DNA from: a virus
Taxonomy: Duplodnaviria; Heunggongvirae; Uroviricota; Caudoviricetes
IMG/VR virus record: IMGVR_UViG_3300021431_000008
Direction: 5' to 3' (one strand)
DNA: 27,456 bases
Position numbers and translations under genes: made by a program. Under the pieces are notes generated by a model that did not search any database, was not told the origin of the DNA, and saw only the letters and a program-made list of their open reading frames with translations. This document shows, piece after piece, positions 1,237-27,451 of this stretch; within the stretch, counting starts at the first letter, position 1, and each line of letters starts with the position of its first letter.

Positions 1237-1249
1237 GCCGATTTTCTCC

Positions 1250-1859: not shown

Positions 1860-1863
1860 AATT

Positions 1864-2486: not shown

Positions 2487-2498
2487 GGTGCATCGCCT

Positions 2499-2512: not shown

Positions 2513-2525
2513 ACTCCAGATTAGA

Positions 2526-3353
2526 TTATCGCTCTAAATAGAATTCGGTAATAATTGCGGTTTTCGCAACATATCCGGCCATAGCCAGAGCCACGTAGTA
2601 TTCGCCACTGAGAGAAGAAATATCAATTTCAACTGTTCCAGCTGCACTAAATGTCTGAGACAAGGTAGTTCCGGCAGGAAGTTTAGTCATTTGTCCAGTT
2701 GATGAATTAGTTGGATTCCATGAAGCAGTTTTCTGCGTACGCACTGCCAACCATGATCCAGGACCATGGCTATCATCTTCAATACCGGTTTCGGATAAGA
2801 CCGTCATGGCAAGTTTTGAATACGAGGTAAGATCTATTTTATTAACGGTAGATAAAATAACACCCGATGTTTTAGCAACGGAAATGTAAATATGATCTGT
2901 ATTCAACGAAAAGCTACTTTTATTATTGAAGCCAACGCTTGTATCCATACTTCCGCCAGATGCCCAGCCACCGGTTAAATCAGTGCACTCGTCACCGGCA
3001 TTATACAGATAAATGCGCCATTCAATCCAATTCGTGCCGTCATAGCTCATGGCAACTTTCGGTTCCCAAACGCCATTAATATACTGGAATGTCGCGATTG
3101 GATAAACCATCAAAGCATTTTCTTTCAGAACATTTATTCCGGCCACAGAACTTAATCCGGTGCGAACCCAAAGCCACCCTTCAGAAGGGTTTGAGGGCTC
3201 GACAGGGCTAACGGACCAACCAGTAATAGCTTGATCAGTATTGATCCAAATAGTATTGGCGCCAGGCGAAATGGGCTGTTCGGTCGATGCAATCAACGTC
3301 AGATCGATTCCGCCGCCAGTTCCTCCGCCAACCATATTCATTACAAGACTCAT
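2526..3353 (-). CDS. Putative tail fibre/receptor-binding protein, 275 aa
   Basis: ATGA overlap with the upstream gene. Gly linker near the N-terminus, P...NTIWINT / P....EGWLWV repeats, YLYNAGDECTDLTGGW motif, beta-rich C-terminal domain. Confidence 0.55.
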   Translation of the reverse strand: MSLVMNMVGGGTGGGIDLTLIASTEQPISPGANTIWINTDQAITGWSVSPVEPSNPSEGWLWVRTGLSSVAGINVLKENALMVYPIATFQYINGVWEPKVAMSYDGTNWIEWRIYLYNAGDECTDLTGGWASGGSMDTSVGFNNKSSFSLNTDHIYISVAKTSGVILSTVNKIDLTSYSKLAMTVLSETGIEDDSHGPGSWLAVRTQKTASWNPTNSSTGQMTKLPAGTTLSQTFSAAGTVEIDISSLSGEYYVALAMAGYVAKTAIITEFYLER

Positions 3354-4786: not shown

Positions 4787-4952
4787 TTTCCTCACCTGCT
4801 TTGTTAGTCATAGATTGAATATCAGAAATAAGCCCGCTGCAGATCTCATAGATATATGCTACAGCAGTCGCGTTCTTTACGCCTTTGATTTCAATATTGT
4901 TTACGATTTCCTGAATGCTCATGATTTTCTTAGTGATTTCTGTGATGTCCAT
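4758..4952 (-). CDS. Small hypothetical protein, 64 aa, directly after the Tal-like gene
   Basis: SD AAAGGA upstream. Fills the gap between the Tal-like gene and the 478 aa gene in operon orientation. Confidence 0.6.
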   Translation of the reverse strand: MDITEITKKIMSIQEIVNNIEIKGVKNATAVAYIYEICSGLISDIQSMTNKAGEENGGEYTGST

Positions 4953-4981
4953 AAGAATTATGTTCCTTTCTGTTTTATTAA

Positions 4982-7231
4982 TTATGCGCGGAAAGAAATA
5001 TTAGCCGTCTGATAAGGTTCTCCGTTAGAAAGATATATTCGAACCGTTGCTGAACACCAATAGCCTCCTTCCCCATCTGGGGACGCAGTTCCAGCATTTC
5101 CGGGCACATAACAAGAGGTAACGGAAACTTCTTTAGCGCCATGATCATATGCTTTTTTAGCATCAACATAAATTTTATTAGTTGCCCCGATCGTACCATT
5201 ATTTAAGATTGCATGAATTGGTACCGAAAACTGCTTAGAGGGTTTTATGTATGCGACAAAATTTGTTTCATCTTCAAACATTTCAAGGGACTTAATTTTT
5301 ACCGCCGATATCGAATCCTTGAAAAACTTCGTATCGGCTATATTAAAAGTTGAGTCTTCCCATGTAAGTTCACCAAGTTTAACCTCGCCGTTTGTCTCAA
5401 CTGTCAATTTATGACGATGATCTTTAATATCTCTATTACCATTTCCTTTAAGAAAGAAATAACTTGCATAGACACCCGGCACATCGATATACCCAGAGTT
5501 TGTCATAAAAGTTAAATACTTAAAACTAATATTACCATCCTCACCCATAATTGATAATTTATTAGCTTTAATAGTACCAGACTCTGTTAATAAATCAAAA
5601 ACGGTAGTATGAAGCGACATTAAATCGCTATTCATAGCAATCGACGACTGCGGAGTATATTGAACATGCGTATTGCCATTTTGATCTTCGACAACGCTTG
5701 TATTATACTGAACACCAAGATTGATCTCAGCGAGTTCGTGTGTATTATCGTCCTGAACATAAATGTGAACTTCCGGACCATTCGGACCTGTCACCACATT
5801 CACGCCAGCTTGATTTGCAATGTTGTCGCACCTGGATTTAAAAGATGAAACCAGATCAATGGCAGAACCGTCAGCATCGCTTCCAAGTAAAATCTTTGTT
5901 CCGGTAACAATCTTCTGGTCAACCGGATTATCAGGATCGCCGCCTGGGTTCCAGACTCTCGTAAACAAAGTATTCAGATCAATAATACCGTGCTCACTGT
6001 CAGTATTAATCCAAGCTTTATAAAAATCGATCTGATTCTCGGTCGAGGCTTCTTCGGCTTGTTTAGCTGCACCGCCGCCACCGCCACCGCCTTTTTCGGG
6101 CTTACGGTCCTGACGATAGCGCTCGGTCAAAGACTGCTTCGGCTTACCAAATGTATAGCTAGTATTAGCAGGATTCGCTAAATCATATACAATTTTTGTG
6201 CAAATTAAATCCGGGTCATCAACGCCATGGCCCGGAGACAAAACATGTACTTTATCACCCAAGCGGATCGGTTGCACGCCCGGATTTAACAAATGCATAT
6301 CAACGGCGGTAACTGTAAAGGTAATCGGCGGAATCGCATGCTCGGCCAAATATCTTTGTCCGTTTTCCATAAGTGTCTTGGCGCTCGTAACACCTTCAAA
6401 CACATTGGTCTTAACAATGCGACCGTAACGTTCAAGTGCTTCCTCATTTACAAGTTCATTACTTCCATTGTTAACAGACTTGATCGTGAGATTTTCTTCG
6501 CCAAGCGGAATTAAAACACTAAATGCGTCTTCCGCATTATTCTCTTCTGTCAGATCAAGTAAATTCCTACCAAAAGAGATTGTCTGTGTGCTCTCAGCAT
6601 AATGGTCCTTCAGCCAGTCAATATATGTAATGCCGAGATCTTTGTCATACCGAGTTCTTAAATATCCGCCACAGTAATCGATCAAGCTGCATTCCAGATA
6701 ATCAAAGCTCGTCTGCCAGTTCCCTACTTCGCCATTGATAACAATTTGGTTATAGTCAAATTTATTAGTTTCTTTGTCAATTATATTTTCAGACTTACCG
6801 GCTACGTACACCTTTCGTTCATCAACGGTGACATCGCCAACAGTAAAGACTTTTTCACTGCCCTGAACCATCTGATTATGCTTTTCGATGATCTTCGTAA
6901 ATAACTCTGTCGACGATCCATCAAATTTCTCAGGATTTTGAACAGTATCAATTAAATATGAAAGATCACCTTCACCGTAGATGGTACGGATCAGATTGAA
7001 GTTTTTCGTATTGGATAAGACTCTTCCGCGAAAGATCTCATCTCCATCTTCCGTAACGGTAAGAATCGCTTTTAGCTGCTGAAGATTACCATAGTAAGAA
7101 TTGGTCGGGGGAATGCCGAATTCAAGCGACCCGGCTTTCCCCATTTCGACCGTCAGCCTCGGTGATGTTAACCGAAGCCGTTCGTTAGCAGGCTGATAAA
7201 TTAATTTACCATCTGCATAGATTTGATACAT
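4982..7231 (-). CDS. Tal-like tail tip/hub protein (prophage endopeptidase tail family-like), 749 aa
   Basis: Third gene of the TMP-Dit-Tal triad, with TAATG overlap to Dit. Motifs EIFRGRVL, GEGDLSYLIDT, QTISFGRNLLD, LIPLG, LERYGRIVK..F.GV, AVDMHLL....I.LGDKV.V, then a Gly7 linker and a variable C-terminus. Confidence 0.8.
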   Translation of the reverse strand: MYQIYADGKLIYQPANERLRLTSPRLTVEMGKAGSLEFGIPPTNSYYGNLQQLKAILTVTEDGDEIFRGRVLSNTKNFNLIRTIYGEGDLSYLIDTVQNPEKFDGSSTELFTKIIEKHNQMVQGSEKVFTVGDVTVDERKVYVAGKSENIIDKETNKFDYNQIVINGEVGNWQTSFDYLECSLIDYCGGYLRTRYDKDLGITYIDWLKDHYAESTQTISFGRNLLDLTEENNAEDAFSVLIPLGEENLTIKSVNNGSNELVNEEALERYGRIVKTNVFEGVTSAKTLMENGQRYLAEHAIPPITFTVTAVDMHLLNPGVQPIRLGDKVHVLSPGHGVDDPDLICTKIVYDLANPANTSYTFGKPKQSLTERYRQDRKPEKGGGGGGGAAKQAEEASTENQIDFYKAWINTDSEHGIIDLNTLFTRVWNPGGDPDNPVDQKIVTGTKILLGSDADGSAIDLVSSFKSRCDNIANQAGVNVVTGPNGPEVHIYVQDDNTHELAEINLGVQYNTSVVEDQNGNTHVQYTPQSSIAMNSDLMSLHTTVFDLLTESGTIKANKLSIMGEDGNISFKYLTFMTNSGYIDVPGVYASYFFLKGNGNRDIKDHRHKLTVETNGEVKLGELTWEDSTFNIADTKFFKDSISAVKIKSLEMFEDETNFVAYIKPSKQFSVPIHAILNNGTIGATNKIYVDAKKAYDHGAKEVSVTSCYVPGNAGTASPDGEGGYWCSATVRIYLSNGEPYQTANISFRA

Positions 7232-8319
7232 TACAGCCTGCCTCCTGTATTTTCTATTGATACAATACCCGTACCGGTAAACGTGAGCACGTTTTCTCCG
7301 GTCGAGAAAGTAATGCTCTCCAGAATATTGGTACCCTGAGAAAGCGGATAGGTTTTCTCGTTGATTGTAACGCTCATTGTAAAAGGTTCATTTTGATACG
7401 TTGAGCAAGTAATGATCGGCGAACTCTCATAAATCTCTCCGATATAGGTAACAACATCAGTTCCTCGAACGATAACATTCTTAGTGGATTCGATGCGGCT
7501 TTCTTCATGAGTGACGCCTTCTTCGTCTTCGTAAGTTTCGAATACGAAGGGATCCCAAAGCCACTTATCGCCGGAAGAGAGAATCGATCTCTTATACGGC
7601 CCTACATTATAGTTAATCGTAATTCTCGACCAGTCTTTGTCGCTCTTCCATTCATTAAGAGAAAAGCGCCCTTCGTAATAATACTCAGGGTCGTCGTCAA
7701 GGATTGCTTTAAATTCCTTACCATGTAAGTAGGTAGCAATATCACTGTAACGGTCATACCACTCACCATAATCATTCATAACCAGAAATTCGAAACTCCC
7801 TTGACGATTTCCATAAACCGGTCGCCCGGCAAGGACGGTTGTAAGATCGAGCATACCGTCCCCACCGGGTATATCCACGTAATTTGTTTTCACATTCGGC
7901 ATATTGAACTTCGGTCTGGAAGTAGGCACAAGATGCCAATCATCCCAGGTGTTCTTTTCGCCGATTGTAATTGAATGATATTGTCTCGCTAATTCAGAGC
8001 TTGTGCTCGAAGAATGATCATGCGAACCGAAGTTGACGGAAACGCCTTCATAATCGCGAACGTTCTGATAGCCGTTTTTATCAATAAAAAGTGTCCCGAC
8101 AGGATCGACATATCTAGACGGTATGGCTTCCACCGAAACGCTATTCAGGCCATCATATTCGGAATCTGCTTTAATAACCTGAGTTTCTTTCGTAGGTGTA
8201 GCAGATTTATCTTGGAGATTAGGATTACCACTGACCTCAACGGATCGTTCAACGCCGTCATCGTTAATCAGTATACTTACGATTGCACGACCATTCTGAT
8301 CAAGAAAGTCAGTTGCCAT
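7231..8319 (-). CDS. Distal tail protein (Dit-like), 362 aa, with about 113 aa N-terminal extension
   Basis: Immediately after the tape measure gene. Core YHSITIGEKNTWDDWHLVPTSRP..P.VKT.YVDIPGGDG.LDLT..L.GRPVY.NR.GSFEF...LHGK.....LDDDPEYYYEGRF is typical of siphovirus Dit proteins. Confidence 0.8.
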   Translation of the reverse strand: MATDFLDQNGRAIVSILINDDGVERSVEVSGNPNLQDKSATPTKETQVIKADSEYDGLNSVSVEAIPSRYVDPVGTLFIDKNGYQNVRDYEGVSVNFGSHDHSSSTSSELARQYHSITIGEKNTWDDWHLVPTSRPKFNMPNVKTNYVDIPGGDGMLDLTTVLAGRPVYGNRQGSFEFLVMNDYGEWYDRYSDIATYLHGKEFKAILDDDPEYYYEGRFSLNEWKSDKDWSRITINYNVGPYKRSILSSGDKWLWDPFVFETYEDEEGVTHEESRIESTKNVIVRGTDVVTYIGEIYESSPIITCSTYQNEPFTMSVTINEKTYPLSQGTNILESITFSTGENVLTFTGTGIVSIENTGGRL

Positions 8320-8322
8320 ATC

Positions 8323-11300
8323 TTAATTCCCCCTTCCCTTTCGCATTTGCAAAGTTCCGAAAGCGTCATCCATTTGTCTGGATGTAGCGCCAACAAGTTC
8401 ACCGGAATCGAGCACGATCTTCATGTTTGTAATTGCCTCGCCAAGATTATCGAGTCTGGAGCCCATGCGCTGAAGCTCAGAAACGATACTGTCAGCACCT
8501 CCGCCATAAGTAACGGCTGCGGCTGTATTTTGAGCAGTATCCATGCTGACTCGAGAAGAAGCCCGCAGAGCCATTCCAACAGTTCCGAACATTCCACCAG
8601 CGCTACCGGCAGCGTCTGTGACGTTACTCATGTCAACGACCGGCGTAATCATCGGATTATACTCAAAGCTATCATCAGCGATCGTAGCAACATTCATCAT
8701 CGCCTGTTGCATAGCGGCGAGAATGCCACTGGACATGATTGTAATAGAATCGACAGCGGTTCCAGTATTTTCTTCAATACCTTGAGCGACACCAGCCGGA
8801 ATGAAAGAGGCAAGTCTAGCAAACACACGAGACGGAGAACGAATCTCTAAAGAACTGGCGAAAGCCGAATTAATAGCGCTCGCTAATGCTACCGCGGCGC
8901 TAACGCATGTAGCCGTTGAGGCGGCAATACCGTTAGCAATGCCATTCCCAATATCTTCGCCGATTGTTACGCTTAATGTATTGGCAGTCATTATAACTTC
9001 GCCATCTGTGCAAGCAAGAACAACGGCTCCACGAACAGCCACCACAATAGCATCCTTTACCGTATCTCTACTACTAGTCACGCCGCTGGCGATTGAAGCC
9101 ATAATATCAGATCCAAGTCCACTCACTGACGATACAATTTCAGCCATAGAAGAGATTAGTTCGGCGGTAAGCCCCATGTCTACGCCAGTAGCGGATAGAT
9201 CAAAGAAGAGCATCTGAATCTGATCTATCAATCCGGCTATCAGATTAAAATCTTTAATATTTTTAAGAACAGCAAAAGAATCAACAAATTTCTGAACATT
9301 CTCAACACTGGCGCCGGAAAACTTATTAAGAAACGGAATAAACTGATCGCCAAAAGTACTAAGCGTTTCGCCAAGAGCAGTCATTTTTCCCATTTCGTCT
9401 TCACTCATGCCGGACCAAGTTGTACTCCAAATCTTTGCTGATACAATTTTACTAACACTCTCTTCAAACTTTTCGAACTGACTTAAATCATCGTCGGTTA
9501 ACGTGCTTATATTCTCTAAGAATCTCGGAAATCCATCTGTAAAATCTGCAAGAGCAGCAATAGCATGCTGGCCGTCACCATTAGTCGGTGAAATCCATGC
9601 GATAATATCCGCCAAGGTAGACCAACCAGTAATTGCCGTAATTTCCTGCATGACATTACCAAAAGACTTGATCTTGCCCGGTGCATCATCAGATATGGAA
9701 GCAGCTTCTAGAGACCCAACAAATCCTGCGACAGCGGTTGGCAACTGAATAAGTTGATTACTCCACGCAGTTTTTACAGCATTTCCTAATGCAGTGAACA
9801 TTTTTGCAAGCATGTCCCAACCGGTAATCATGCCAAGAGACTGCATAATATTTGAAAATGTCCTAATTTTCTCTTCTGTACCAGACTTAATATTTGCTTT
9901 CTCTATAGCTGTAACAAAATCGCCTATAGTCTGCGGTAATGCAACGAGCTGATTGCTATATGCAGTTCCAACAGCATTTCCTAATGCCGTAATCATTTTT
10001 CCGGCAGCGTCCCAAGCTGTGATCGTCGCAAGAAGCTGCATAATCGAAACGAAATCTTTAATTTTACTTTCAGCTTTTTTCGGAAAATCTTTAGAATCAA
10101 TTGCGTTCGCAAAATCAGCGACTCCGGTCGCAAGATTCGACATATTTTCAATAAACGTTGGTCCAAACTTATCCCCAAGTGCTCCGACAGCATTTCCAAG
10201 CGAATTCATCATCGTCGCTATAACATTCCAAAGCTCAACTTCAGTAAGAGCTTGCATGATTGAAGCGAATGTCTGAACTTTCTTTTCGATGCCTCCTGCA
10301 AAATCTACTTCTGCCAACTCCGTTGAAAACCTGGCAAAACCCTTAATCAACTCAGTCAGATTTTCAAACAGTCGTGATTTATCGCCACCGGATTCGTCCG
10401 AAGCGGTTTCATTAAAAACATCAGAAATAGCAGCCAAAATAGTTCCAATGGCTTCCCATCCAGTTATTCCAGCAATGGATTGCATAACACCGGAAAAAGT
10501 TTCAATTTTCGAAATATCATCGCCTGTAAATTCTGAAATATCTGTAACAAATTCTTTTACAGCCTTGCCAAGACTCTTTAGATCTTCAAATAGCGCTGCA
10601 CTAGGAACTAAAGCTAAAGCAGCCGCAAGTGCTGTAAATAATTCCGCAAGCGCAAGCTTTCCCATCATGTCCGCAAAACGACTTAGATTTTCGACCGTCG
10701 AATCATCATAGGATTTAATCGATTCTAAAAACGGATTAAGCGCAGCAGTGAAATCACTGAGCTTATTTGCCATGGATATTGCTACAGATATAACAGCAAG
10801 ACCAATGGCCATTAATGCAAGTAAAACAATTTCAATAGCAGCGAATATTGCGCCAATACCAACAATACCTTTTACAGCTCCGCCAGTTGGGATCTTGCCA
10901 AGAAGAACTGCCGCACCAGCAATGCCAACGATTGTCCCAATGCATATTAAAGCGGCTTTTCCGATTTTATCCCAGTCAAGGTTTGATTCGCCAAACGGAA
11001 CAAGAATTTCGCCAACAAGCCAAAGAGCACCAATACCAACCGCAAGTGAAGCGACGGCTGCAAGATTAAAACCACTACCAAATTTACTAATCAGCGCCAT
11101 AGTTCCGCCGAGAGCCAATAAAACAACAGACAATGCTCCAGCAGCCGAAGCCAACTGTTTTGAGGGCAACCGCGATAATTTGTGAAGAGCGGCCGATGCG
11201 GCTACAATAATCCCAATAATAGCCAACGATGCTACAATCTTCTTAATTGCACCCGTTTGAAAGCTGCCCTTCATGCTATCCAAGAATTTGCCTAAAGCAA

Positions 11301-14300
11301 ACATGATCGCGCCGAGGCCAAGAAGCCCTTTTACGATCTGCTCAACAGGCAAGGATCCGATTCGGGCCATAACCTCCGCCAATGCGGCAACGGTAATTGC
11401 AACAGCAATAAGCCCCCAAAGTTGTTTGCCGTTAATCGACTGTCGCTCAGAAAATAATGAGTTCCCTACACCCTTACTAAATGTTCCCTGCATCACGCGA
11501 ACTAAACTTCCAACAAGTATAAACATCGCGATCGCAGCCTTCATAATACTCGTGAAATTCATATCGCCAAGACGTTTGAAGGCCCCAACTAATACCGCAA
11601 GAGTGAGAGCAACACCAATCAAGCCAAATAATTCTTTTCCATTATTAACACGAGAAGACTTTTTTGTAAATCGAATCATCTGATTCATAATCAGACTAAG
11701 ACCGATCCAGCCTTTTAGAATCTCTGCAAAATCCATGTCGCCGAGACCTTTCATAGACTTTGCAAGAAGCCAAACGCCAGCTGCAACATATAATAATTTA
11801 TCGAAATTCGTATCCCAGCCTAAACCTTTTGACCGTTTAGTAAAACGAATCATTTGATCCATTACTAACTTTAAGCCAAGCCAGCCTTTAAGAAGTTGCT
11901 TCATATCCATATTGCCAAGTCTCTGAAGTGCGTTTGCAACAAGCCACACTCCAATGGCAATTTTCAAGATGTCTCCAAGACCTTTTTTCTTAACATTTCC
12001 ACTAAATAAAGTAAAAGTGATTATCTGTGTTAAAATAGTACTTAAAGCAAGCCATCCCTGTAATAAAGATGCTGGATCCATATGGCCAAGAACTGCTAAA
12101 GCAGCAACAATTATTCCTATTGCAAGTGCAACTGGAACGAGAGACCACATTGCTTTTGTGCTAATTCCGCCTGGCAATAAATTAATTAGAGACACAAGAC
12201 CTATGATTCCAACAAGCACCAATCCAGCACCAATTAGTCCATCGATGGCAATCTGCATTTTATTTTTCGGAATGGTTGATAATATCTTAATAACAACGCC
12301 AATGGACAAAATTAAAGAAGCCAACGATCCTATTAATCCGGCTACAGCACCAATCTTTAAGCCTTCGGCAAACTCACTGACGCTTTCGACAGCCCAGCGT
12401 AATGCTCTCGACCATTGCGCAATCGAAATAAGCGTATAGGAAATTGTAGCAACTTTAATGAGAGGCAATGCATCCTTAGCAATTGTTCCAAGCATTTTAA
12501 GAAAACTGCTAATAGTTTCTCCGATATTCTCAAAACTAATTTTACTGGAAATAAACTTACCAAAGTTATCAAATGCTCCGGAAATCGTTTCGCCAAGGCT
12601 ACGAATCGTTTCGCCCAAAGTCGAAAAATCAAAAGTTTTAGAGAAAAAACCGCCAATGTTTCCGAAAATCCCAGTAAAGAAATTTCGTATGGCATCAGCA
12701 ATCTGCGTTACCTTTGTTGCATCGAGCTTTCCGAACAAAAACGTGCCAACTTTAGAAACAGCATTCGAAATAAAGGTTCCAATTGATTCTGTAATTGCTG
12801 TAAAATCAACGCTTTTATTAAAAAACGCCACAATACGTTCGATAATAAATTTGAATACTTCTTTAATACCGCCAGCGTCAAAAGCGCTCTTTATTCCATC
12901 AAATATGCCAACAACCTTATCTCTAATAAGCCTTCCAAATAACTCCAGTACCCCAATTAATCCATTTATCGAAAACTCTCGCCTAAATAATTTAAAGTAT
13001 TTTGAAATATTCCCGAATACACTTTTTACAGCATTTCCGATTGTACTCAATATTCCAGCAATCTTAGTCAGCGCCGTAGTAATCCATGTGCTAACTGTTG
13101 TGCTGGACATGAATTCTTTAAAACGATCCGCTACGGCCGTAATCTTATCCGCGATAACGCCAAGCCACTCAGACAGTGTTTGAGCCCAAGCCTGTTTACC
13201 CAGTTCTTTACCTTTATCAATCAACGTCATAATTCCAACAACAATTAATTCTAACGGAATTAAAAGCGCTTGAAGTAAGGTAAGCACTGAAGAAATAATC
13301 GCTTTAAAAATGCCACTTTCCCGAAGTGTATTGAAAAGTCTTACAGCAATATTAAAGATACCGCCAAGGATACCTTTTATGAGATCTGTGACACTGCCAA
13401 TCGATGAAAACGCTTCGAATAAACTAACGAATTTATCGCGTAACGCTTTCGCTTTATCTTCAGTAATTTCCAAAGATTCTGTAAAATCGTGAAAACGTTT
13501 AACAAGCTGATAGATCCGTTCGGCCACATTTTCGTTTGCTATATCTTCATTGGTTTCTTCGTCAGTACCTCCGAAGATAATGTTAAACGCTTTTCTGGCA
13601 GCTTCACTCACAGCCGAAAAGACATCTAAAAGATTCTGCAGCGATTCAGTAAATAATTTAAAGCCAGACTCTCTCGTAACTTTTTCATCGGTCATAAGAC
13701 TGAGCACCTCTTCAGATGCTAGTCCTAACTCATGAAGTTTCTCAATTTCTTCATCAGTATATCCGGCCAACTTTAAAAGCTGATCAGAATATTGATCCAT
13801 AAATTGAACGAGATAGGGATCTCCAGATTCTTCAGTCATGGACAGATAAGCTTCCATAAACTGATCGACGGAAACGACACCTTGTTCCATCGCAGCCTGC
13901 AGCGAACCATACTTCGTAATAAGCTTCTCAAGTCCACTGTCTCCTAATTTCGATGCTGCGATATCAAAATCTTCAAACGTGTAACCGCCTTTTTCGAGAA
14001 GAGCCTGAGCTTTCTTCAAATCAACAACGGTCGCATCTTTGCTAGATTGAATCGATTCTGCTGCGGCTTTTGCCTCGGTGGTTTGTCTTTCAATAACATT
14101 GGCCCACCATTCAATCATACTGACATCGTAGCCGCGAGCTTCCAAAGTTTCCTTGCTGACAGCTCCGTCTAAAAACCACTCAGCATTTTGTTTAATATCG
14201 TCGATCTTTTTGTTAAAATCGTCATTCTTGCCATTTACAATTTTATCTAAACGATCAAGATTCATTTGATCAAGGATTGCCTGAAATTGTTCGGCTGTAA

Positions 14301-18624: not shown

Positions 18625-20640
18625 TTAACCAGGGTTAGACGGATTGGTGGTGGTAACCTCTTCCTCGATAACGATGAAGGAATACAGGCGAGTGGTAGCG
18701 CCGGAGACGCGGGTCTCAAGCAGGCTCTTCTCCTGGTTAAAGTCGATATCGAACTGGGTGCGATGAATGATCTCGCCGCCCTTGGTCTGACCAAGAGCGT
18801 AGTCAGCCAGGTTACCAATGATAGCCAGCAGACGATAGGTCTTATTATTAGCAGTACGGGTCTTGTTCACAAACTCGGGAACACTGTAAACATTGCCGAC
18901 ATCCAGAGCACTGGTAAGCTCGCCCTTGTTGGCATACAGACGACGACCGTTCAGATCCTTGGCCAGCATCATCTTGTTAAAGAAGGCCTGCGTGCAGAAC
19001 ATATCGGGAGTGCCGGTGCCCTTGAAGTCGATCTTGGCGTCGAGAATAGCCTCCTCGGTAGCCTGAGCATACTTGTAGCTATCGCCGAAGTTACCGGAGT
19101 AATCACCATTCACGCCGGACAGATCGAGAGCCTTGTGAATGGTATAGATGTCGTTATCAGTCCAGATAGGACGGATGTGCTCGGGATTGATCTTATCGGC
19201 ATCGGCATCGTCACGACCGTCGCCAATCAGCATGGCCTGAGCAAGCTCGAGCTCCAGCTGGGCGCGATCAATCTTATACTGATAATCGACGTAATCGAAA
19301 TCGGTGATGTCAACAACGTCGTCGTGATTCAGAGCGGACTTGACATACACGGTCTGAGGATCGGTAACACGCTTGGCAACGGTGTAGTTACCGGCGAGAG
19401 TCTTCTCCTTACCCTTCAGATAACCGCGGGCACGCAGGGCCTCGATACCACGAATATCGACATAGCTGGTGCGGATACGGCTGAACGGGCTCTTGTGGAC
19501 CTTGTTCAGAACAGCCTTAACCCAAGCCTGGTCGTTGGTAACAAGCTGAGGGGCGCCGGGATAAACGTCATGGTACTCGGGGAAGAAACCCTCAACCGCA
19601 GCGGGATTCTGTCCAACGGGATAGGAAGCAGCACCGGAAACAGGAGCCAGAGTGGAAGTGGGAGCAGGAGTCGGATCATCGTCGGCATGAGCCAGCTCAT
19701 TCTCCTCAGCATAAGCGGCAAGAGCGTCGCTCAGCTTACCATACTTCTTGGCAACAGCAATGATGTTCATCTCATCATCGTGGGAAAGATAAGCGCCGGA
19801 CTGGGCAGCACCGGCATCAAAAGCGTTAAAGTTCATAACTTCTCCTCCATTGTCGGAATGTTTAATTTCAGCCTTGGCATCTTCAACAGCCTTGCTGATC
19901 AGGAATTTCATTACTTTCAGCTGATTGTCATCCATTGTATCGATAACATCCTGGACCGTAGCATCTTTACCAAGGTCAGCATGCTCGATTTCATCATCAT
20001 CTTCATCAGCACCGCCAGCTTCGCTAGCAGCCTGAGCGATAAGATAGGACATGACCTTCAGCTGGTCTTCGTTCATCGTGTCAATGACATCCTGAACGGT
20101 CTTCTCATTGTCCATTTCTTTGCCTCCGTCTTCATCTTTATCGGCATGTCCAAGCTCGAGACCATAATCTTCGCCGATATAGATGTAAGCTTCGTCCATC
20201 AAAGTTTCGGGATCATCGCCGTGCATAATAATCGGATAGGTAATCTGAGCACCCATATTGGCACCAGCCAGCACAAGGCTCACTTCCTTAATGGAACCAT
20301 GAAGAACATCTCCACCACTCTGCTTGAGCTGATTTGCCCAAATAGAAAGAGACGTCACGTCGCGGTGCATTACATCCTGCTTTGCACGCTTAGCATCCTC
20401 GCTATCATTAAAATAACCATAAAAGAAAACGCCCTCAGGACGGTTCTCAAGAAAACCATGTCCGAGGACGGCATTAGGACTATCGTGATTGTGCCCCCAA
20501 ACAAGAGGAACCTTAGCTCCATCCTGGTGGGCGAACGCATCACGGCGAATTGTACGGCCATCACTGCAACGGAGATCATTACGCGTTGCCCAACCGGCAA
20601 AATCGCAGTCCTGATATTTCGCAGGAATTGCGTCAGGCAT
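18625..20640 (-). CDS. Prohead protease (HK97/S78-like) - scaffold-like linker - major capsid protein fusion, 671 aa
   Basis: SD AGGAGG. N-terminal protease motifs FAGWA, VPLVWGH50, SLS99I, KEVSLVLAGAN. Acidic helical linker at aa about 140-318. C-terminal about 350 aa capsid region ending FDIDFNQEKSLLETRVSGATTRLYSFIVIE. Confidence 0.9.
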   Translation of the reverse strand: MPDAIPAKYQDCDFAGWATRNDLRCSDGRTIRRDAFAHQDGAKVPLVWGHNHDSPNAVLGHGFLENRPEGVFFYGYFNDSEDAKRAKQDVMHRDVTSLSIWANQLKQSGGDVLHGSIKEVSLVLAGANMGAQITYPIIMHGDDPETLMDEAYIYIGEDYGLELGHADKDEDGGKEMDNEKTVQDVIDTMNEDQLKVMSYLIAQAASEAGGADEDDDEIEHADLGKDATVQDVIDTMDDNQLKVMKFLISKAVEDAKAEIKHSDNGGEVMNFNAFDAGAAQSGAYLSHDDEMNIIAVAKKYGKLSDALAAYAEENELAHADDDPTPAPTSTLAPVSGAASYPVGQNPAAVEGFFPEYHDVYPGAPQLVTNDQAWVKAVLNKVHKSPFSRIRTSYVDIRGIEALRARGYLKGKEKTLAGNYTVAKRVTDPQTVYVKSALNHDDVVDITDFDYVDYQYKIDRAQLELELAQAMLIGDGRDDADADKINPEHIRPIWTDNDIYTIHKALDLSGVNGDYSGNFGDSYKYAQATEEAILDAKIDFKGTGTPDMFCTQAFFNKMMLAKDLNGRRLYANKGELTSALDVGNVYSVPEFVNKTRTANNKTYRLLAIIGNLADYALGQTKGGEIIHRTQFDIDFNQEKSLLETRVSGATTRLYSFIVIEEEVTTTNPSNPG

Positions 20641-20735: not shown

Positions 20736-22190
20736 CTACTCTTCACTGTTAACATTGTTTTGTCCTTCGGCTGCGCGATCAAGCAAGTAATTTAAAACTG
20801 TTACTTGTCGATCATCCATTGTTTCGATGACGTTCTGTACAGTCTCAGCATCAAGATTTTCCTCATCAAGAGGCTCTTCTTCAGATGCAGCTTCTGTCGT
20901 TTCGGACTCAGCCGTTTCTTCCTCGGGAGCGACTCCATCATTTAAATCAGTCGTGTCTCCCGTTATGGCGGCATCGTCTTCTTCAGCCATTGGATCCATT
21001 TCTGTTGGCATGTTGGGGTTTCTCAGGGAATCGGCACCTTCCTGATCCGAGGGTTTAAAGCCAAGAATTCCTCGCATCTCGTTCGGCGTCAGAATCTCAT
21101 TGCGAATCAGCTTATCGCCAAGTTCAGCAACATCTCCGACGGGAACCAAGCGGAACGGATTATGGAAGGACAAAATCGAATGCCCCTGAGTACGGGCCGC
21201 CTTTGTAAGCCATTTGCGAACCATGCCGTCTACAAAGGTCGTAACAAGCGGTTCGATAATATTATTGTTATAGTTCAGCTTCGTCATTTCATTGGCATTA
21301 CCGTTTAAAATCTCAGGACAAACACCAAGCTGATCGTGCAGTTGCTTTGTCAGCGAGTCGATCTGTGCCTGAAGATTATTATCAAGCGGTCTACCGAGCT
21401 GAATGACTTTTTCGGAAGCATCGATATAACCGATACCGTAGCGGGAACCGGCCAGCTGCACTTCCAGATCGTGTCTACGCTGTTCGGCTCTCTCCTTCTG
21501 CGTCTCATGGCGAGTGGCGTAAGGAAGCTGAATAATCATATCGAGCTTGCCGGATGCCGTCTTGTCGTCAATCTGATCGAGAAGAGCAAGTTTCTTCCGA
21601 AGACGCATCATCAACGAGTTTGGCGCATTCATGATGTCATAGAAGGGATTCTGCAAAATAACGCAGAGCTTCTTTGGCATACGAATCGTTTCTCGTTGCC
21701 CTGTTTCTTCATTGTAGAGCTCTACATCGATCTCTTTCGGATACCAAGCCATGATCTTGCCAACACGAGCAGACTGAATCTTATTGATGGACATCGTCTG
21801 ATAATTCACATCGGCAATAATCGGACAAACTGCAATATACCCTTCGTCAAGGAGAGATGCATAGACATCCTGCTTGAAGTCTCGAGCAGACTGATCGAGA
21901 TTGGCCTCTAAAGTCAGAATATCGTTGAGCTCATCCTCAACATCTTCCTGGTATCGTTTGTACTTATCAAGCTTGACATGCCGAATATCAACAGCTGCAG
22001 CATCGACTGCAATGCGATTCAAAAGAGGCGCAATAATAGACCGTTCGTTTCCGACTTTCGGTCTTCGACGATCCGGCCTTAAACTACCCGCTGAACTATA
22101 TGAGAAAATATCCTGTTGACGTACAGGAGTGGGATCTCTGTTTCGGAAGGCGTTCCAAGCCTTCTGAACGCGCTCAGTTAAACTGGGCAA
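20736..22190 (-). CDS. Portal protein, 484 aa
   Basis: TTG start with SD GGAGGTGA. NRIAVD, LEANLDQ.AR.F, DEGYIAV, GKLDMIIQLPY, EKVIQL, LIRNEILTPNEMRGILG (late TPNE.R motif of HK97-type portals). Lies between the terminase region and the capsid gene. Confidence 0.92.
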   Translation of the reverse strand: MPSLTERVQKAWNAFRNRDPTPVRQQDIFSYSSAGSLRPDRRRPKVGNERSIIAPLLNRIAVDAAAVDIRHVKLDKYKRYQEDVEDELNDILTLEANLDQSARDFKQDVYASLLDEGYIAVCPIIADVNYQTMSINKIQSARVGKIMAWYPKEIDVELYNEETGQRETIRMPKKLCVILQNPFYDIMNAPNSLMMRLRKKLALLDQIDDKTASGKLDMIIQLPYATRHETQKERAEQRRHDLEVQLAGSRYGIGYIDASEKVIQLGRPLDNNLQAQIDSLTKQLHDQLGVCPEILNGNANEMTKLNYNNNIIEPLVTTFVDGMVRKWLTKAARTQGHSILSFHNPFRLVPVGDVAELGDKLIRNEILTPNEMRGILGFKPSDQEGADSLRNPNMPTEMDPMAEEDDAAITGDTTDLNDGVAPEEETAESETTEAASEEEPLDEENLDAETVQNVIETMDDRQVTVLNYLLDRAAEGQNNVNSEE

Positions 22191-22209: not shown

Positions 22210-23202
22210 TTATTTTCTACGTTTTCTAAATTCCTCAAGTTTTCCAAGTGGCGTAGCTCGAAATTCAGCTTCGGCCTCTTTTAACTTATCAGTTAATGTA
22301 GGATCAGATCCATAAGCCGCAGGATACATCTGGCGAATTGTAGCATCCCACCATTGCTCCGAAATTTCTGTAAGATCAGATTCCAACTTTTCGTATTTTG
22401 ATTTTTCCGAATTAGTCATTTTCTGATCATAATTAGCGCCGTATTTTTCAAACATCTCGTTGTCAAAATCGATATAGGCTTGGCGAAGCGGCTCTCGTTC
22501 AGCTGCTAATTCGAGACCGCGATCATACATTTCATCGCGTGCCTTTCGAGCTTCATCTAACCGTTCGCGTTCATCAACACCGGCGATATCTTTTGCTTTG
22601 TCAACGGCTTTCCGTCCAAGATCCTGAGCAATCTCTTTGGCCGTACCATCCTGCCCGGTAGCAATCTCCCAGGCACGTTCTTTGGCATAATCCAAACGCC
22701 CTAAAGGAGTCTTACGATATTCGGCCTGCGCTTTTTCAGCTGCTTCCCAATCTTTCTTTGAGGAATTCGGACCTACTTTATTCCAGGCGGCTTCGGCACG
22801 TTCTCGCTCATCGACTCCAGCACGGTCCTTAATAGTATCGGCAGCTTTGTTCAGGCCACTGCGAATATCGTCATGCATCCGTTCAGCACGAGCTTTACCA
22901 TTAGAAACGGCGCTCTGAGCCTTTTGTTTAGCTTGCTGAGCTGCGTTATTGGCTTTACTACGCGCATTATCGTAATAAGCCTTCAACTCATCCTGAGTAT
23001 AAAAATACCGAGCCTTAGCACCGTCACCGATCTTTTCGATATACTTTACGGCACGATTACCAGCGGAACGAGCCGAACCGTATGCGTTACCGGCCGCAGA
23101 ACGGGCTGAACTATATGCGCTCTTCGCTCGATCCCAAATCGAATGCGAGAGATAAGGTTGTCCATTTTCATCAATTAAAATGACGTAATTGGAGTTTTGC
23201 AT
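22210..23202 (-). CDS. Hypothetical charged alpha-helical protein A, 330 aa; candidate internal head/ejection protein
   Basis: SD AGGAGG. First 77 aa are 72/77 identical to the 391 aa protein. Ala/Lys/Arg/Glu/Asp-rich with no TM segment. The function is inferred. Confidence 0.6.
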   Translation of the reverse strand: MQNSNYVILIDENGQPYLSHSIWDRAKSAYSSARSAAGNAYGSARSAGNRAVKYIEKIGDGAKARYFYTQDELKAYYDNARSKANNAAQQAKQKAQSAVSNGKARAERMHDDIRSGLNKAADTIKDRAGVDERERAEAAWNKVGPNSSKKDWEAAEKAQAEYRKTPLGRLDYAKERAWEIATGQDGTAKEIAQDLGRKAVDKAKDIAGVDERERLDEARKARDEMYDRGLELAAEREPLRQAYIDFDNEMFEKYGANYDQKMTNSEKSKYEKLESDLTEISEQWWDATIRQMYPAAYGSDPTLTDKLKEAEAEFRATPLGKLEEFRKRRK

Positions 23203-23213
23203 TTTAGCCTCCT
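22973..23213. repeat. 241 bp direct repeat, copy 1 (RBS plus first 77 codons of protein A)
   Basis: Hand alignment to 25039..25279: 221/241 identical, no gaps. Confidence 0.95.
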
Positions 23214-23230
23214 CAAATTATAGAGGAAGA

Positions 23231-23578
23231 TTAATGCTTCCCCGTATAAACTTTCAGACCTTCGTCAGTGGTTTCGTTAACGACAAGCTTTACGAGGCCT
23301 TTCTTCAAAACGTCTTCACCACTAAGATCGATATCGACACCAGTAACTTCACCAGTCGGAAGGACATTAACTGCGCCATCATTCCCAGTCTCAGGCAAAT
23401 CGGTAATGATACTGGTCAGGAGCGAATAGACCGCGGCAACAAGAGAAACGGAAAGAACATTAAGCCAATCTACCTCGCTCACGGTCATACCAACGGTAAT
23501 CATACCAAGGGCAACCTGTGCGGCAGTACGAAGCATACGAATCGCAGCCGCCTTAAACCAATCAAGCGTGAACTTCAT
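23231..23578 (-). CDS. Holin, r1t-like family, 115 aa
   Basis: SD AAGGAG. W.KAA.IR..RT.AQ.A...I.VG.....VDW..VLS.S..AA..SLLTSI...LPE is the r1t holin-type pattern, with two hydrophobic helices. Confidence 0.75.
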   Translation of the reverse strand: MKFTLDWFKAAAIRMLRTAAQVALGMITVGMTVSEVDWLNVLSVSLVAAVYSLLTSIITDLPETGNDGAVNVLPTGEVTGVDIDLSGEDVLKKGLVKLVVNETTDEGLKVYTGKH

Positions 23579-24062
23579 AGTTTTCTCCTTCTTTCAAATA
23601 AGAATTTTCCTGAATACACTTCAGGTTTAAACGACGTATTTCTGTGATGGCAGCATCTACAACACCGTTTTTAATCTTGTGTGTACGAATATAAGTTTCA
23701 TAATCGTCGCACTGCTTAATCACAAATTCAAACTGTTCTTTTGTGTGCTTTCGACCATTCATGCAGGAATTACAGAATTCCAAAATATCTCGGCGAGTGT
23801 CCTTAATTTCTTTGGCAGATGATTCTTCAATGTGCTTATCCAATTCGGCACTGAGTTTCGTAACTTTACCGTCAATATCTTTCAGCTTGTCGTTAATACG
23901 GGAGTTAAACTTGGAGCCAATCCAACCTAGGATAACGGTCCAAGGATTAAACTTGATCGGAGTAAACTCCACAAACAAGCTGACAATAAAAAGGAGAACC
24001 GCCCAAAATGACAGCTCTCCGCTCCTGTCTCCGATCAGTTCGACCAGTTTTGCAACCGTCAT
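23562..24062 (-). CDS. Membrane-anchored protein (holin-associated/holin-like), 166 aa
   Basis: SD GGAGG. One N-terminal TM segment (FWAVLLFIVSLFVEF) followed by PIK.NPW, a coiled coil, and R..IL.F...C......T.E.F......D.YE.Y......NG. Overlaps the holin start. Confidence 0.6.
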   Translation of the reverse strand: MTVAKLVELIGDRSGELSFWAVLLFIVSLFVEFTPIKFNPWTVILGWIGSKFNSRINDKLKDIDGKVTKLSAELDKHIEESSAKEIKDTRRDILEFCNSCMNGRKHTKEQFEFVIKQCDDYETYIRTHKIKNGVVDAAITEIRRLNLKCIQENSYLKEGENYEVHA

Positions 24063-24092
24063 GGAAGTGTCCTCCGATTGCTATTTATAGTT

Positions 24093-25268
24093 TTATTTAT
24101 TCTTCAGTGCATCCTCATAAATATCATTAAGTTCAGTAGCCATACGTTCCATTTCCCGCTGATAGGCAACTCTCTTTATTGGATTACGTTCCGATGTATA
24201 TTTATCTGCTAACGAATCTAAAGAATTATACAGATCTTCAGTTCTTTTTTTTGCAGTTACTAATTCATTGCTGTTGGGGTCGTATGCCCACTGATTCGAC
24301 AACTGAACCTCAGACACTTTTTCACTCAGATTTGCTGCTTTTTGTGCTAGCGGGCCAAGCTTACTATCGGCCCATCGATCTTCCTGATGGGCATTAACAA
24401 AATCAAGTGCTTTACTCGCCGCTGTCTTCGTTCGATCAACGGCATCAGAAGCAGCTTCCTTAGCGCGATCAGCAGCATCGGAAGCAGCTTCCTTAGCACG
24501 ATCAACAGTATCAGGAATAACATCCGTAATAAAACCAAGAGGCGTTTGCTCATAATGGTTCTGAGCATTATGTGCTTTTAGCGAAGCGTCTTCATACTCT
24601 CTTTGTTTCATCCGAGCGTCAACTTCTGCAAGTTTTACATCGTCATTTGCTCTAAGAAAAGCATCCGTATCTTTCTGCAGCCGAGCGTCATATTCTTCGC
24701 GCATTTTAGTGTCACGATCGCGTGCATCCGCACTTAAAGCACGTTTAGCTTTTTCGATAAACCCTTTGCGCTCATCTAAGTATTCCTCAGCGCTTCCTTT
24801 ATGATTATCTAACCTATCTTTTACGAAATCACGTGCTAATTTAGCATTATTAAGACGTTGCTGGGCATTAAAATGCTTGACAAATGCAGCATCAGATTTA
24901 CGTATTGCAGCATCTCGTTTCTCGCGATCGGTAATTCCGATTGCGTCACGAGCTGAAGCCACTGCTTTATTAGCTGCATTTTTAGCAGACTGAGATGCTT
25001 TATTAGCTGCATTCTTAGCAGCATTTTTGCCCTTATTATAATAAGCCTTCAACTCGTCCTGAGTATAGAAATACCGAGCCTTAGCGCCGTCACCGATCTT
25101 TTCGATATACTTCACGGCGCGATTGCCTGCGGAACGAGCTGAACCGTATGCTTTACCGGCGGCAGAACGGGCCGAACCATAGGCATTCTTCGCTCGATCC
25201 CAAATCGAATGCGCGAGATAAGGTTGTCCGTTTTCGTCAATTAAAACAACGTAATTGGAGTTTTGCAT
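24093..25268 (-). CDS. Hypothetical charged alpha-helical protein B, 391 aa; paralog of protein A; candidate internal head/ejection protein
   Basis: SD AGGAGG. Shares the N-terminal 77 aa and the G..eRe+...TPLG module with protein A. Contains 11-aa tandem repeats. Confidence 0.6.
   Translation of the reverse strand: MQNSNYVVLIDENGQPYLAHSIWDRAKNAYGSARSAAGKAYGSARSAGNRAVKYIEKIGDGAKARYFYTQDELKAYYNKGKNAAKNAANKASQSAKNAANKAVASARDAIGITDREKRDAAIRKSDAAFVKHFNAQQRLNNAKLARDFVKDRLDNHKGSAEEYLDERKGFIEKAKRALSADARDRDTKMREEYDARLQKDTDAFLRANDDVKLAEVDARMKQREYEDASLKAHNAQNHYEQTPLGFITDVIPDTVDRAKEAASDAADRAKEAASDAVDRTKTAASKALDFVNAHQEDRWADSKLGPLAQKAANLSEKVSEVQLSNQWAYDPNSNELVTAKKRTEDLYNSLDSLADKYTSERNPIKRVAYQREMERMATELNDIYEDALKNK
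24433..24506. repeat. 33 bp tandem repeat (about 2.2 units) encoding DRAKEAASDA[AV]
   Basis: cgatcaacggcatcagaagcagcttccttagcg / cgatcagcagcatcggaagcagcttccttagca / cgatcaac. Confidence 0.85.
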
Positions 25269-25279
25269 TTTAGCCTCCT
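25039..25279. repeat. 241 bp direct repeat, copy 2 (RBS plus first 77 codons of protein B)
   Basis: Hand alignment to 22973..23213: 221/241 identical, offset 2066 bp. Confidence 0.95.
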
Positions 25280-25685
25280 ATAGATCTTTAAGATTTATAT
25301 AGCGATAACGTTCAATCATGTTATCGCCACGAGAAATAAGGCCTTGACTCAAAGAAACTACAGTCTGATCAGCAAACGCTTTTTGCATAGACTCATACCA
25401 ATTAGAAGCCCGTTTTGCATATCGTTTGCTCTTTTGATAGTTTCTTCTAGCCAACTCAGCTTCCCGTTTATTGCTTCCAATTCGTCTGTTATTCGCTCGT
25501 TTACTATATTTCGTAGATTTATCAAAAGCCTTATCCGACTTTGTAGCTAACTTTTTAAACTTTGTACTAGCCCGTGTATAAGCCTTCTGAGGATCGTGTC
25601 GAACACCCCAACGCATACCTAGGACGCCGTAATGAGCAAGCGAAGGAGAGCCGTTCTCATCAAGGGTAATCATATAATCAGACAA
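25278..25685 (-). CDS. Basic protein with LAHYGVLGMRWGVR motif (about 135 aa); candidate minor head/internal protein
   Basis: The track ATG at 25694 abuts the SD (AAGGAG-ATG), so TTG at 25685 fits the spacing better. The LxHxGxxGM[KR]WGVR motif is one I recognise from head-region genes of related siphoviruses. The body is Lys/Arg-rich. Confidence 0.65.
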   Translation of the reverse strand: MSDYMITLDENGSPSLAHYGVLGMRWGVRHDPQKAYTRASTKFKKLATKSDKAFDKSTKYSKRANNRRIGSNKREAELARRNYQKSKRYAKRASNWYESMQKAFADQTVVSLSQGLISRGDNMIERYRYINLKDL

Positions 25686-25705: not shown

Positions 25706-27451
25706 TTATTCAAACATATCCTTATTAACTTTATAGGCAACATAGGCATCCATTAGAGCCGAAACATTATCGATCTTTTCCTGACGGCGCTTCTTTAAGA
25801 GCTTCCTGTTGCCATTCGTATCTTCCTGCGTAATGCAGTTACCCATACAAAACGACATGATCTGCTCGTCGAAATAGAGTTCCCGACGCTCAGCCAAAAT
25901 CTTAAGTTCACCAAGCGGAACCGATTCAGTCTTTACGCCCTGAGGAACTTTCTCGATACCATAAGGTCCGTTATCGATCTCCCAGCGATTAATAAATACC
26001 GGTGCATTATACGGATCGTAACCCAGGCACTGAACATTATAATGTTTCGTATCAATAAACCGATAGAGATCTTCGTAAACTTCTCCAAGATCCAGAACCG
26101 TCGATTCCAGAACAACAAGACTTTCTTCCCGAATGAACTTTTCATACTCGGAGCGAAGAGCTCTTGGTAATTTCTGGAAGGTGTATGATGTAATATAGCT
26201 TCTTGCCTTTACACCGAACCCACCACCGGCAAGAGGAAATAGAAATGTGAACGCGCAAAAGTCGTCGCCTTGAGAAAGGTCAACACCAAGCGAACACATC
26301 ATTCCATCGAAATACTGTCTCCGATGAGGTTTTGTCTCTTCGTACGTAAAGAAGTATGTGTAACCTTCCATCGGAATCCCGAATCGTTTTGCTAAAATAT
26401 CGTTTCGGACCGCTGGGTTCTTTTCAGCTCTGTCAAGCTCGATCTTATAGGTTTCGTAACTTACGGTTGCTCCAAGGTTCGGATTTGCTTTAATCCACAT
26501 GGTAGGATTATTAAGCTCTTTAATGTCGTCAAGCTTATACCACCAGATTGAAACATGCGGATTATAGTAATCCCCTTTCAGGATCTCCATAAGCTCCATT
26601 TTGATTGTGTCGCCGGGACCGTTACGTACAGTACCTTCAGAACTTGTCGCAACAATCAGCCAGTTGTCGACTTTGGCAGCACCCTGTTCCAGAGCACCTA
26701 CGACGTCTTCCTTAACATCACCGGAAAGCCATTCGTCAACGGTAGCATACTTACAGCGAGCACCCTGAAGTTTGTCGATACGCATCGGTCGACTTTCAAG
26801 AATGGAATTTGTTACAAAATTTTCGATGCCTTTCTTGGTCGGAGCAATCTTGACGCGATCAGCTTTACTGCCGGTCGTGTTCTGCAAGGAACCTTCCGTC
26901 ATGAATTTCAGAACTGGTCCCTTAGCACGAGCGATTGCAATCTTAAGCGGAAGTAATGTTTCTTCAGACTGACGAATGGTAGGCGCCGTCACGATCTGAT
27001 CGGTCGCCTCCTCGTCCATGATGAGTCCATAGCCCTGAACGCAAGTGCAATAAACAGACTTTGCAGCACCTCGTCCAACGATAAGATACTGCTTGTTGCG
27101 AAGACGTTTCTTGATCTTACGGATCTCGAAATGACCACCGCTGCCTCTAAGATTCGGAACCCATACACTGCGTTCAACAAAGTAAAACCAGCAGTAAATA
27201 TCTTCCGCCCAAAGCTTAAATGAATCTAGAAGCGTCAGATCTCCACCGTCTGTCAGTGTCAGTTCACCTTCACAAAAGCGAATCCAGCCATCAAGAACAG
27301 TGTCATCATAGTAAAAGCGCGGATCTTCAATCAAGTTGTCTATCAGCGTCATCTGCATCGACACTTCACGATTAACGACGATTTCTCCGCGTAAAACGGC
27401 GTCTCGAAAAGCGCCGTAGTATTTGGGTACAGCGGTATTCGATAAAGCCAT
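25706..27451 (-). CDS. terL: Terminase large subunit, 581 aa
   Basis: Walker A-like GRGAAKS, Walker B ATVDEW, motif III ATSSEG, C-terminal RNase H-like nuclease (LGVDLSQGDDF, GYDPYNA, KIDNVSALMDA). Confidence 0.95.
   Translation of the reverse strand: MALSNTAVPKYYGAFRDAVLRGEIVVNREVSMQMTLIDNLIEDPRFYYDDTVLDGWIRFCEGELTLTDGGDLTLLDSFKLWAEDIYCWFYFVERSVWVPNLRGSGGHFEIRKIKKRLRNKQYLIVGRGAAKSVYCTCVQGYGLIMDEEATDQIVTAPTIRQSEETLLPLKIAIARAKGPVLKFMTEGSLQNTTGSKADRVKIAPTKKGIENFVTNSILESRPMRIDKLQGARCKYATVDEWLSGDVKEDVVGALEQGAAKVDNWLIVATSSEGTVRNGPGDTIKMELMEILKGDYYNPHVSIWWYKLDDIKELNNPTMWIKANPNLGATVSYETYKIELDRAEKNPAVRNDILAKRFGIPMEGYTYFFTYEETKPHRRQYFDGMMCSLGVDLSQGDDFCAFTFLFPLAGGGFGVKARSYITSYTFQKLPRALRSEYEKFIREESLVVLESTVLDLGEVYEDLYRFIDTKHYNVQCLGYDPYNAPVFINRWEIDNGPYGIEKVPQGVKTESVPLGELKILAERRELYFDEQIMSFCMGNCITQEDTNGNRKLLKKRRQEKIDNVSALMDAYVAYKVNKDMFE

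Follow-up and report, generated by a model that had tools for sequence, protein, structure and literature searches.

The window analysed here, the whole stretch of 27,456 nucleotides from IMG/VR record IMGVR_UViG_3300021431_000008, holds three genes between the terminase and portal genes of a siphovirus, and their products (p135, protein B and protein A, of 135 or 138, 391 and 330 residues) begin with a common 17-residue leader. Judged by its sequence, this leader is most likely one form of a wider "h-x-His" N-terminal tag (h, hydrophobic; x, any residue), extended by a flexible beta-hairpin. On the comparisons set out below it is well founded that this N-terminal tag is conserved and flexible and has the same P-side motif as the sites where a protease fused to the capsid protein is presumed to cut at maturation. 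A more tentative reading, to which we give somewhat less than an even chance, is that the leader acts as a head-loading tag with the His as protease site. The source is an uncultured gut/rumen phage, represented by a public metagenome-derived contig of 95.9 kb (positions on it beyond the window are marked L031 below).

A leader common to three head-module proteins

The leaders lie on the minus strand at the positions given by the original prediction, and a six-frame scan of the window with the pattern DE.G.P.[LIV].H returned exactly these three sites:

25632..25682, minus strand: leader of p135, 17 residues (S-D-Y-M-I-T-L-D-E-N-G-S-P-S-L-A-H), from pairwise and profile comparison
25209..25259, minus strand: leader of protein B, 17 residues, from the pattern scan
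23143..23193, minus strand: leader of protein A, 17 residues, from the pattern scan

Their consensus is [DN]Y-h-I-x-h-DENGxPxL[AS]H. Between p135 and B the alignment is confined to residues 5-21, where 10 of 17 are identical (pairwise E 2e-5). The earlier observation that the likeness of p135 to A and B ends at the His holds at family level: when 27 A/B N-termini were compared with 19 p135 homologs, profile against profile, only the 17 leader columns aligned (probability 81.6%, E 1.1e-5). At the DNA level about half of the aligned leader positions match between p135 and A/B (34 columns are invariant across all three), and the conserved residues are written in different codons; it is thus the peptide, not the DNA, that is conserved and under selection, and a recent DNA transfer does not account for it. 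Structure prediction gives the leader a hairpin with strands at residues 7-10 and 16-19, at low confidence. In the model of p135 a confident three-helix body follows a floppy N-terminus (predicted local distance difference test, pLDDT, 80-94 in the body vs 39-51 in the leader). The leader had been described as a portable module on otherwise unrelated bodies. This is true of p135 against A and B, but not of A against B, which have about 78 residues in common and bodies of one family.

The tag of p135 and the family DUF7211

25278..25685, minus strand: p135, a small basic DUF7211 protein with the hairpin leader; likely start TTG at 25685
25590..25640, minus strand: DUF7211 core of p135, L-A-H-Y-G-V-L-G-M-R-W-G-V-R-H-D-P, which includes the last three leader residues

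The length of 135 residues first proposed for p135 is correct: the TTG at 25685 has AGGAG 9 nt before it, and both the public gene call and the homologs give 135 residues. An alternative reading in the list of open reading frames (ORFs) starts at an ATG at 25694 and yields 138. The protein is strongly basic (isoelectric point, pI, 10.2; net charge +16) and matches the Pfam family DUF7211 (PF23847) with 37.6 bits (E 1.4e-9), above the gathering cut-off of 27 bits. Residues 19-35 of the 138-residue reading correspond to profile positions 8-24 of 25, and the leader end L-A-H takes the first matched profile positions. Among p135 homologs the invariant DUF7211 residues are L, H, G, V, G, M, W and G. 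The hairpin extension, 12 residues long, is absent from the 25-position profile and present in only 6 of 19 p135 homologs, so h-x-H is the universal element and the hairpin an optional extension; homologs without the hairpin have a few acidic residues at the start and then Y-L-A-H. Where DUF7211 modules, or the M2 modules described below, lie inside longer, multi-module proteins, h-x-H again stands directly before each. A and B have no DUF7211 match even at E 0.1. A fold search with the p135 model against the PDB and viral models returned generic helical bundles only (E > 0.09), and a literature search found no paper on DUF7211 or the G-M-K-W-G motif. In nucleotide and protein searches of cultured phages A was without a relative and p135 had one weak relative.

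Two further proteins of the contig touch on this family. A fourth protein with tags (L031 9342-9983, 213 residues) is encoded just past the window end, on the upstream side of the terminase gene; it carries two tandem h-x-H tags (Y-L-A-H-H-G..., F-L-E-H-Y-Q-I-K-G...) and reaches 31.1 bits against DUF7211, also above the cut-off. About 6.5 kb past the window end, a 1040-residue RNA-polymerase-like protein (L031 308-3430) has a tag-like stretch, E-F-I-A-H-Y-G-T-P, near residue 71, preceded by a hairpin-like D-E-T-T-G-Q segment. A DUF7211 module on the N-terminus of this polymerase was ruled out, as the profile did not match even at E 10.

The same motif in the protease-capsid precursor

18625..20640, minus strand: fusion of prohead protease, acidic spacer and major capsid protein (671 residues; phrog_3270, E 6.7e-187)
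19681..20238, minus strand: spacer with six h-x-H sites (H140, H165, H220, H261, H287, H318), candidate maturation cleavage sites

The fusion has matches in 244 phage records, which bear the annotation "major capsid and protease fusion protein"; 226 of these cover at least 80% of the protein. Over residues 15-134 it is similar to TIGR01543, the prohead protease of the HK97 family (E 1.1e-5, below cut-off). The spacer between protease and capsid domain is highly acidic (pI 4.05, net charge -33) and holds the YLSH (H287) and ELAH (H318) to which the original prediction had drawn attention, along with four more sites of the same kind. H140 lies at the end of the protease homology region and H318 before the capsid domain, and the remaining sites bracket two helical repeats. 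In this phage the residue two before the His (P3, if the His is P1) is Leu, Ile or Met at all six sites, and the six positions are kept in ten relatives that are 55-87% identical. Hydrophobic P3 residues occur at 63 of 73 spacer His when the relatives and phage 1706 are taken together, and in the ten close relatives at 56 of 61 vs 14 expected (p 4e-30). The His of terminase and portal have no hydrophobic-P3 bias.

A hydrophobic P3 together with a fixed P1 is what proteases of the HK97/T4/herpes assemblin fold recognise (L/I-x-E for T4 gp21, V/L-x-A for assemblin). Since this is the recognition pattern of the superfamily, it is reasonable to see the His plausibly as the P1 residue of the prohead protease. 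Searches of PDB sequences with the fusion and with A1 and A2 found nothing relevant, hence no mature capsid N-terminus from structure, and an Arthrobacter phage paper mentions the fusion without cleavage data.

The tags resemble these sites closely. Their P3 and P1 fit all six spacer sites, and their P4-P1 (Y-L-[AS]-H) equals site 287, which reads Y-[LI]-S-H in 7 of 10 relatives, the same as the last four residues of hairpin tags. The acidic spacer sites (e.g. E-N-E-L-A-H) resemble the short DUF7211 tags (E-E-L-A-H, D-E-I-L-A-H). By these comparisons the tripeptide match of tags and spacer is more than chance at family level. The cultured part of the lineage comprises Lactococcus phage 1706 and many phages of Arthrobacter, Gordonia, Streptomyces and Rhodococcus, whose records likewise name a major capsid and protease fusion protein. 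Both h-x-H-studded fusion spacers and h-x-H-headed DUF7211 proteins are found in six isolates: 1706 (host Lactococcus), Correa (Arthrobacter), ReqiPoco6 (Rhodococcus), Eddiemania (Gordonia), OlympicHelado (Streptomyces) and Caudovirus D_HF4_2. In all six the DUF7211 proteins start with acidic residues and then h-x-H. The protease domain, the individual spacer repeats and the capsid domain are each flanked by h-x-H sites, and this is so in relatives from two bacterial phyla.

The spacer has a counterpart in the portal, whose C-terminal tail (20736-20990) carries a copy of the helical repeat T-V-Q-x-V-I-x-T-M..., matching its two occurrences in the spacer (E 9e-9 and 2e-7). This suggests that the portal may be recruited via the same scaffold-like contacts as the spacer.

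Proteins A and B and the hairpin+M2 family

24093..25268, minus strand: protein B (391 residues), with leader, Ala/Ser/Gly/Arg spacer, M2 and charged helical body
22210..23202, minus strand: protein A (330 residues), paralog of B that occupies the syntenic place immediately upstream of the portal
25050..25112, minus strand: M2 of B, K-Y-I-E-K-I-G-D-G-A-K-A-R-Y-F-Y-T-Q-D-E-L, with invariant K53, Y54, Y66 and Y68
22984..23046, minus strand: M2 of A, from pattern and family alignment

Proteins of this family consist of the leader, a low-complexity variable spacer, the M2 motif and a basic charged helical body. Their N-terminal pattern is [DN]Y-h-h-x-h-D-E-N-G-Q-P-Y-[IL]-A-H, variable spacer, K-Y-I-x-K-I...R-Y-F-Y-T-x-x-E-L, and Y6, D11, G14, H20, K53, Y54, Y66 and Y68 are invariant in 27 of 27 aligned sequences. 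M2 is a predicted hairpin (56-58/65-67); residues 1-85 were modelled with low confidence (pLDDT 62.5). When 1.84 billion representatives were searched with the A/B profile, 587 clusters matched at E<=1e-3 and 216 at E<=1e-10, with lengths of 63-819 residues and with the module beginning at residues 1-10 in nearly all of the top 150 matches. Conservation of the His and the leader among homologs, on which the original idea depended, is thus borne out: the tag is near-strictly N-terminal, and the His is present in 166 of 166 collected members, with G-x-P-Y-[IL]-[AES] before it and a small residue after. The distance from His to M2 varies from 7 to 61 residues. The bodies are 37% charged with a median pI of 9.4. 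Of 159 A/B bodies, 137 fall into one similarity cluster.

Several proposed relationships were examined. M2 as a diverged DUF7211 core was ruled out, as the two profiles align at the leader only and one protein (in L014) has both motifs. Homology of A and B to the actinophage portal-fusion intergenic gene or to 1706 ORF7 was likewise rejected, the A1 profile having no match in 445 ORFs of seven isolate loci. An atlas search with the N-terminus of A gave no usable match.

By sequence A and B are paralogs of recent origin, with 92% identity over the first ~78 residues, and the corresponding DNA forms a pair of gap-free direct repeats of 247 bp that are 91% identical:

22967..23213: direct repeat copy 1, ribosome-binding site and first ~78 codons of A
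25033..25279: direct repeat copy 2, ribosome-binding site and first ~78 codons of B

The repeats bracket the B body, a 166-residue membrane protein and a holin, and recombination between them would delete this block and leave one chimeric gene. An arrangement of this kind brings to mind the MuF toxins of temperate phages, which reportedly (Jamet and colleagues, 2017) join a constant N-terminal virion-association part to variable C-terminal parts and are encoded in the head module. The tagged genes could by analogy be polymorphic effector or toxin cassettes, with a constant N-terminal delivery tag, swappable C-terminal weapons and the 247-bp repeats as recombination handles; repeats that span the 5' parts of A and B, where the tag is encoded, could promote an exchange of bodies. 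We think this very improbable. Searches of A, B, p135 and ten long relatives against Pfam, PHROG and NCBIfam found no toxin, enzyme, immunity or MuF domain, and the gathering of most A/B bodies into a single similarity cluster does not fit swappable weapons.

Genomic context

The structural module of the siphovirus fills the window and is read on the minus strand, in the order terminase, p135, B, 166-residue membrane protein, holin, A, portal and protease-capsid fusion, followed by connectors, the major tail protein, a 2465-residue tape measure protein, Dit and tail proteins. Besides the genes already listed, the features concerned are:

25706-27451, minus strand: large terminase
23562-24062, minus strand: 166-residue membrane protein (phrog_37604)
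23231-23578, minus strand: r1t-type holin
20736-22190, minus strand: portal

All three tagged genes lie between terminase and portal, and this position is a property of the lineage. Among viral contigs a scan turned up 23 loci, which all belong to a single lineage (TerL 65-100% identical); the relatives are uncultured viral contigs, and their order is terminase, tagged genes, portal, fusion. The slot between terminase and portal spans 1-4.5 kb with one to five genes, nearly all of them tagged; the untagged exception is a recurrent pair of membrane protein and holin. Relatives also have further DUF7211 genes upstream of the terminase gene. The gene directly upstream of the portal is of the hairpin+M2 type in about 18 of 20 loci, so the A type is the syntenic core gene and B an extra copy.

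Some loci depart from this plan. The largest expansion seen is in L024 (IMGVR_UViG_3300031867_000026), where positions 1000-13200 hold about ten tagged genes around the terminase, some of them with two modules. Actinobacterial relatives encode a basic helical protein between portal and fusion (L026 7391-8002, L027 8181-8831, L028 8336-8944, L029 8178-8672) that begins with h-x-H and then E-Y-D-P-x-K-x-x-x-Y-Y, a tag variant undetected by the A/B profile. In the window the membrane protein and holin (23231-24062) are placed inside the head module, and an untagged pair of similar sizes (~166-169 and 108-115 residues; matched by size) recurs at the same place in L004, L005 and L020. If these are the same genes, the pair would be a stable feature of a sublineage and not a recent insertion.

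The neighbourhood raises the question of whether the tagged proteins act outside the particle, as packaging accessories (small-terminase-like), DNA-binding proteins or regulators whose motif binds terminase, portal or nucleic acid. Tagged genes do flank the large terminase, no gene flanking it matched a small-terminase family in the scans run, and p135 is a small basic helical bundle, as such a role would have it. This explanation nevertheless seems to us rather improbable, as ORF7 of 1706, a two-module protein, bears the annotation of a virion structural protein, as multiple paralogs per genome with variable bodies (up to ~10 in L024) are unexpected for a terminase subunit, and as the motif match with the capsid-precursor spacer would be left unexplained.

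A possible head-loading system

As we picture it, the tag would mark a variable set of basic helical proteins encoded around terminase and portal, and two steps would follow. First, during prohead assembly the tag would anchor these proteins to the inside of the shell, most likely by way of the very acidic protease-spacer portion of the capsid precursor, of which each capsid subunit bears a copy. Second, the tag end Y-L-[AS]-H would mimic the h-x-H sites where the fused HK97-type protease presumably cuts to separate protease, spacer repeats and capsid domain; the tag may then be clipped after the His at maturation, leaving the basic bodies free in the head with the DNA. Targeting, clipping and injection of the tagged proteins are steps that we infer, as are their docking and their fate, be it internal, scaffold-like or ejected. 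The contrast in charge between p135 (net +16) or the A/B bodies (median pI 9.4) and the spacer (net -33) speaks for head loading. A complex prediction of the protease domain with A-family residues 1-45 scored 0.01 and was counted neither way.

The pointer to tagged proteins in virions is the record of phage 1706 (EU081845), which annotates ORF7, with its two tag modules, as "structural protein". Five points weigh against head loading with cleavage. First, the "structural protein" label of ReqiPoco6 gp020 derives from similarity to 1706 only. Second, the idea of the leader as a targeting part that is cut off misfits the DUF7211 family as a whole: the conserved core G-V-x-G-M-K-W-G comes after the His, with often just 5-12 residues before it, so a cut at the His would leave the conserved core on the mature protein. 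Third, P2' is Asp in 43 of 56 spacer contexts (P1' being Ser, Asp, Ala or Gly) and Gly, Leu or Phe in the tags, and the protease might not accept tags that lack the P2' Asp of the spacer sites. Fourth, h-x-H is two-fold depleted in A/B bodies (ratio 0.50), but selection against internal sites was ruled out as the cause, since Leu, Ile, Val and Tyr are equally depleted, which points to helix periodicity. Fifth, an A-type core gene adjoining the portal suits an assembly protein as well as cargo.

Several of these points would be expected if the leader were a permanent docking or oligomerisation element that is never removed. The A type would then be scaffold- or core-like, its leader and M2 hairpins would bind the portal or the capsid interior, and the His would be structural. 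Conserved residues on both sides of the His, tags without the P2' Asp, the near-constant place of the hairpin+M2 gene next to the portal and the long, helical, charged bodies of 63-819 residues without enzyme domain all suit such an element. Against it, the bodies are basic, whereas known scaffolding proteins are mostly acidic, and the acidic fusion spacer, its repeat copied on the portal tail, is already scaffold-like; a leader-M2 spacer of 7-61 residues is odd for one folded domain, and the low confidence of the model of residues 1-85 does not favour such a domain either. On balance we consider a retained module unlikely, though it deserves to be taken seriously.

Head loading can also be put in a bolder form. 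The protease domain might double as a cargo receptor, with proteins headed by h-x-His pseudo-substrate tags (hairpin, DUF7211 and related forms) held at the inner face of the shell until a cut specific for His frees them at maturation, as a general, programmable loading system in a large lineage of phages of Firmicutes and Actinobacteria. We hold this to be improbable, if worth stating. Such a system might also load the phage's two-barrel RNA polymerase, whose N-terminus has the tag-like F-I-A-H-Y-G. Specific to this window are the hairpin extension, the hairpin+M2 family and the duplicated A/B pair.

Comparison with known systems

The internal proteins IPI-III and Alt of T4 carry N-terminal capsid-targeting peptides that gp21 removes at L/I-x-E. 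Like them, several small basic head-module proteins here have a short N-terminal peptide in common, and it ends in a hydrophobic residue, any residue and a fixed one, a motif also found in the scaffold/capsid precursors of the same phage. The system departs from T4 in its putative P1, which is His instead of Glu, in the fusion of protease and capsid protein, in the type of phage (a siphovirus infecting Gram-positive bacteria) and in the conserved residues that continue past the putative cut; there is no sequence relation, and the system described here is read from sequence alone.

In the giant phages phiKZ and SPN3US a single prohead protease reportedly processes many proteins inside the head, each at a short motif (PMC5694885, PMC7411985, PMC10052503). 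There the motifs end in Glu, the phages are jumbo myoviruses and cleavage is shown by mass spectrometry, whereas here it is deduced from the motif.

The closest cultured parallel is phage 1706, of the same lineage (TerL 59% identical). Its ORF7 has two h-x-H + G-M-[KR]-W-G modules, and the spacer of its protease-capsid fusion has five h-x-H sites. It differs in having no hairpin extension and in placing modules internally as well as N-terminally, and the A1 profile finds nothing in 1706. DUF7211 itself covers p135 and the 213-residue protein, but leaves A and B unmatched and the hairpin extension outside its profile.

Implications

The head-loading idea is directly testable in cultured relatives, namely 1706 and phages of Arthrobacter, Gordonia and Rhodococcus. 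If it is true, a simple peptide handle would become available with which foreign proteins could be packaged into capsids of siphoviruses that infect Gram-positive hosts. The idea would also mean a prohead protease with His at P1, and we know of no other phage that has one. For the lineage, it would explain the terminase-portal slot as a hot spot of variable genes, and at the level of families DUF7211, large and unstudied, and a second one with at least 587 clusters would each gain a function.

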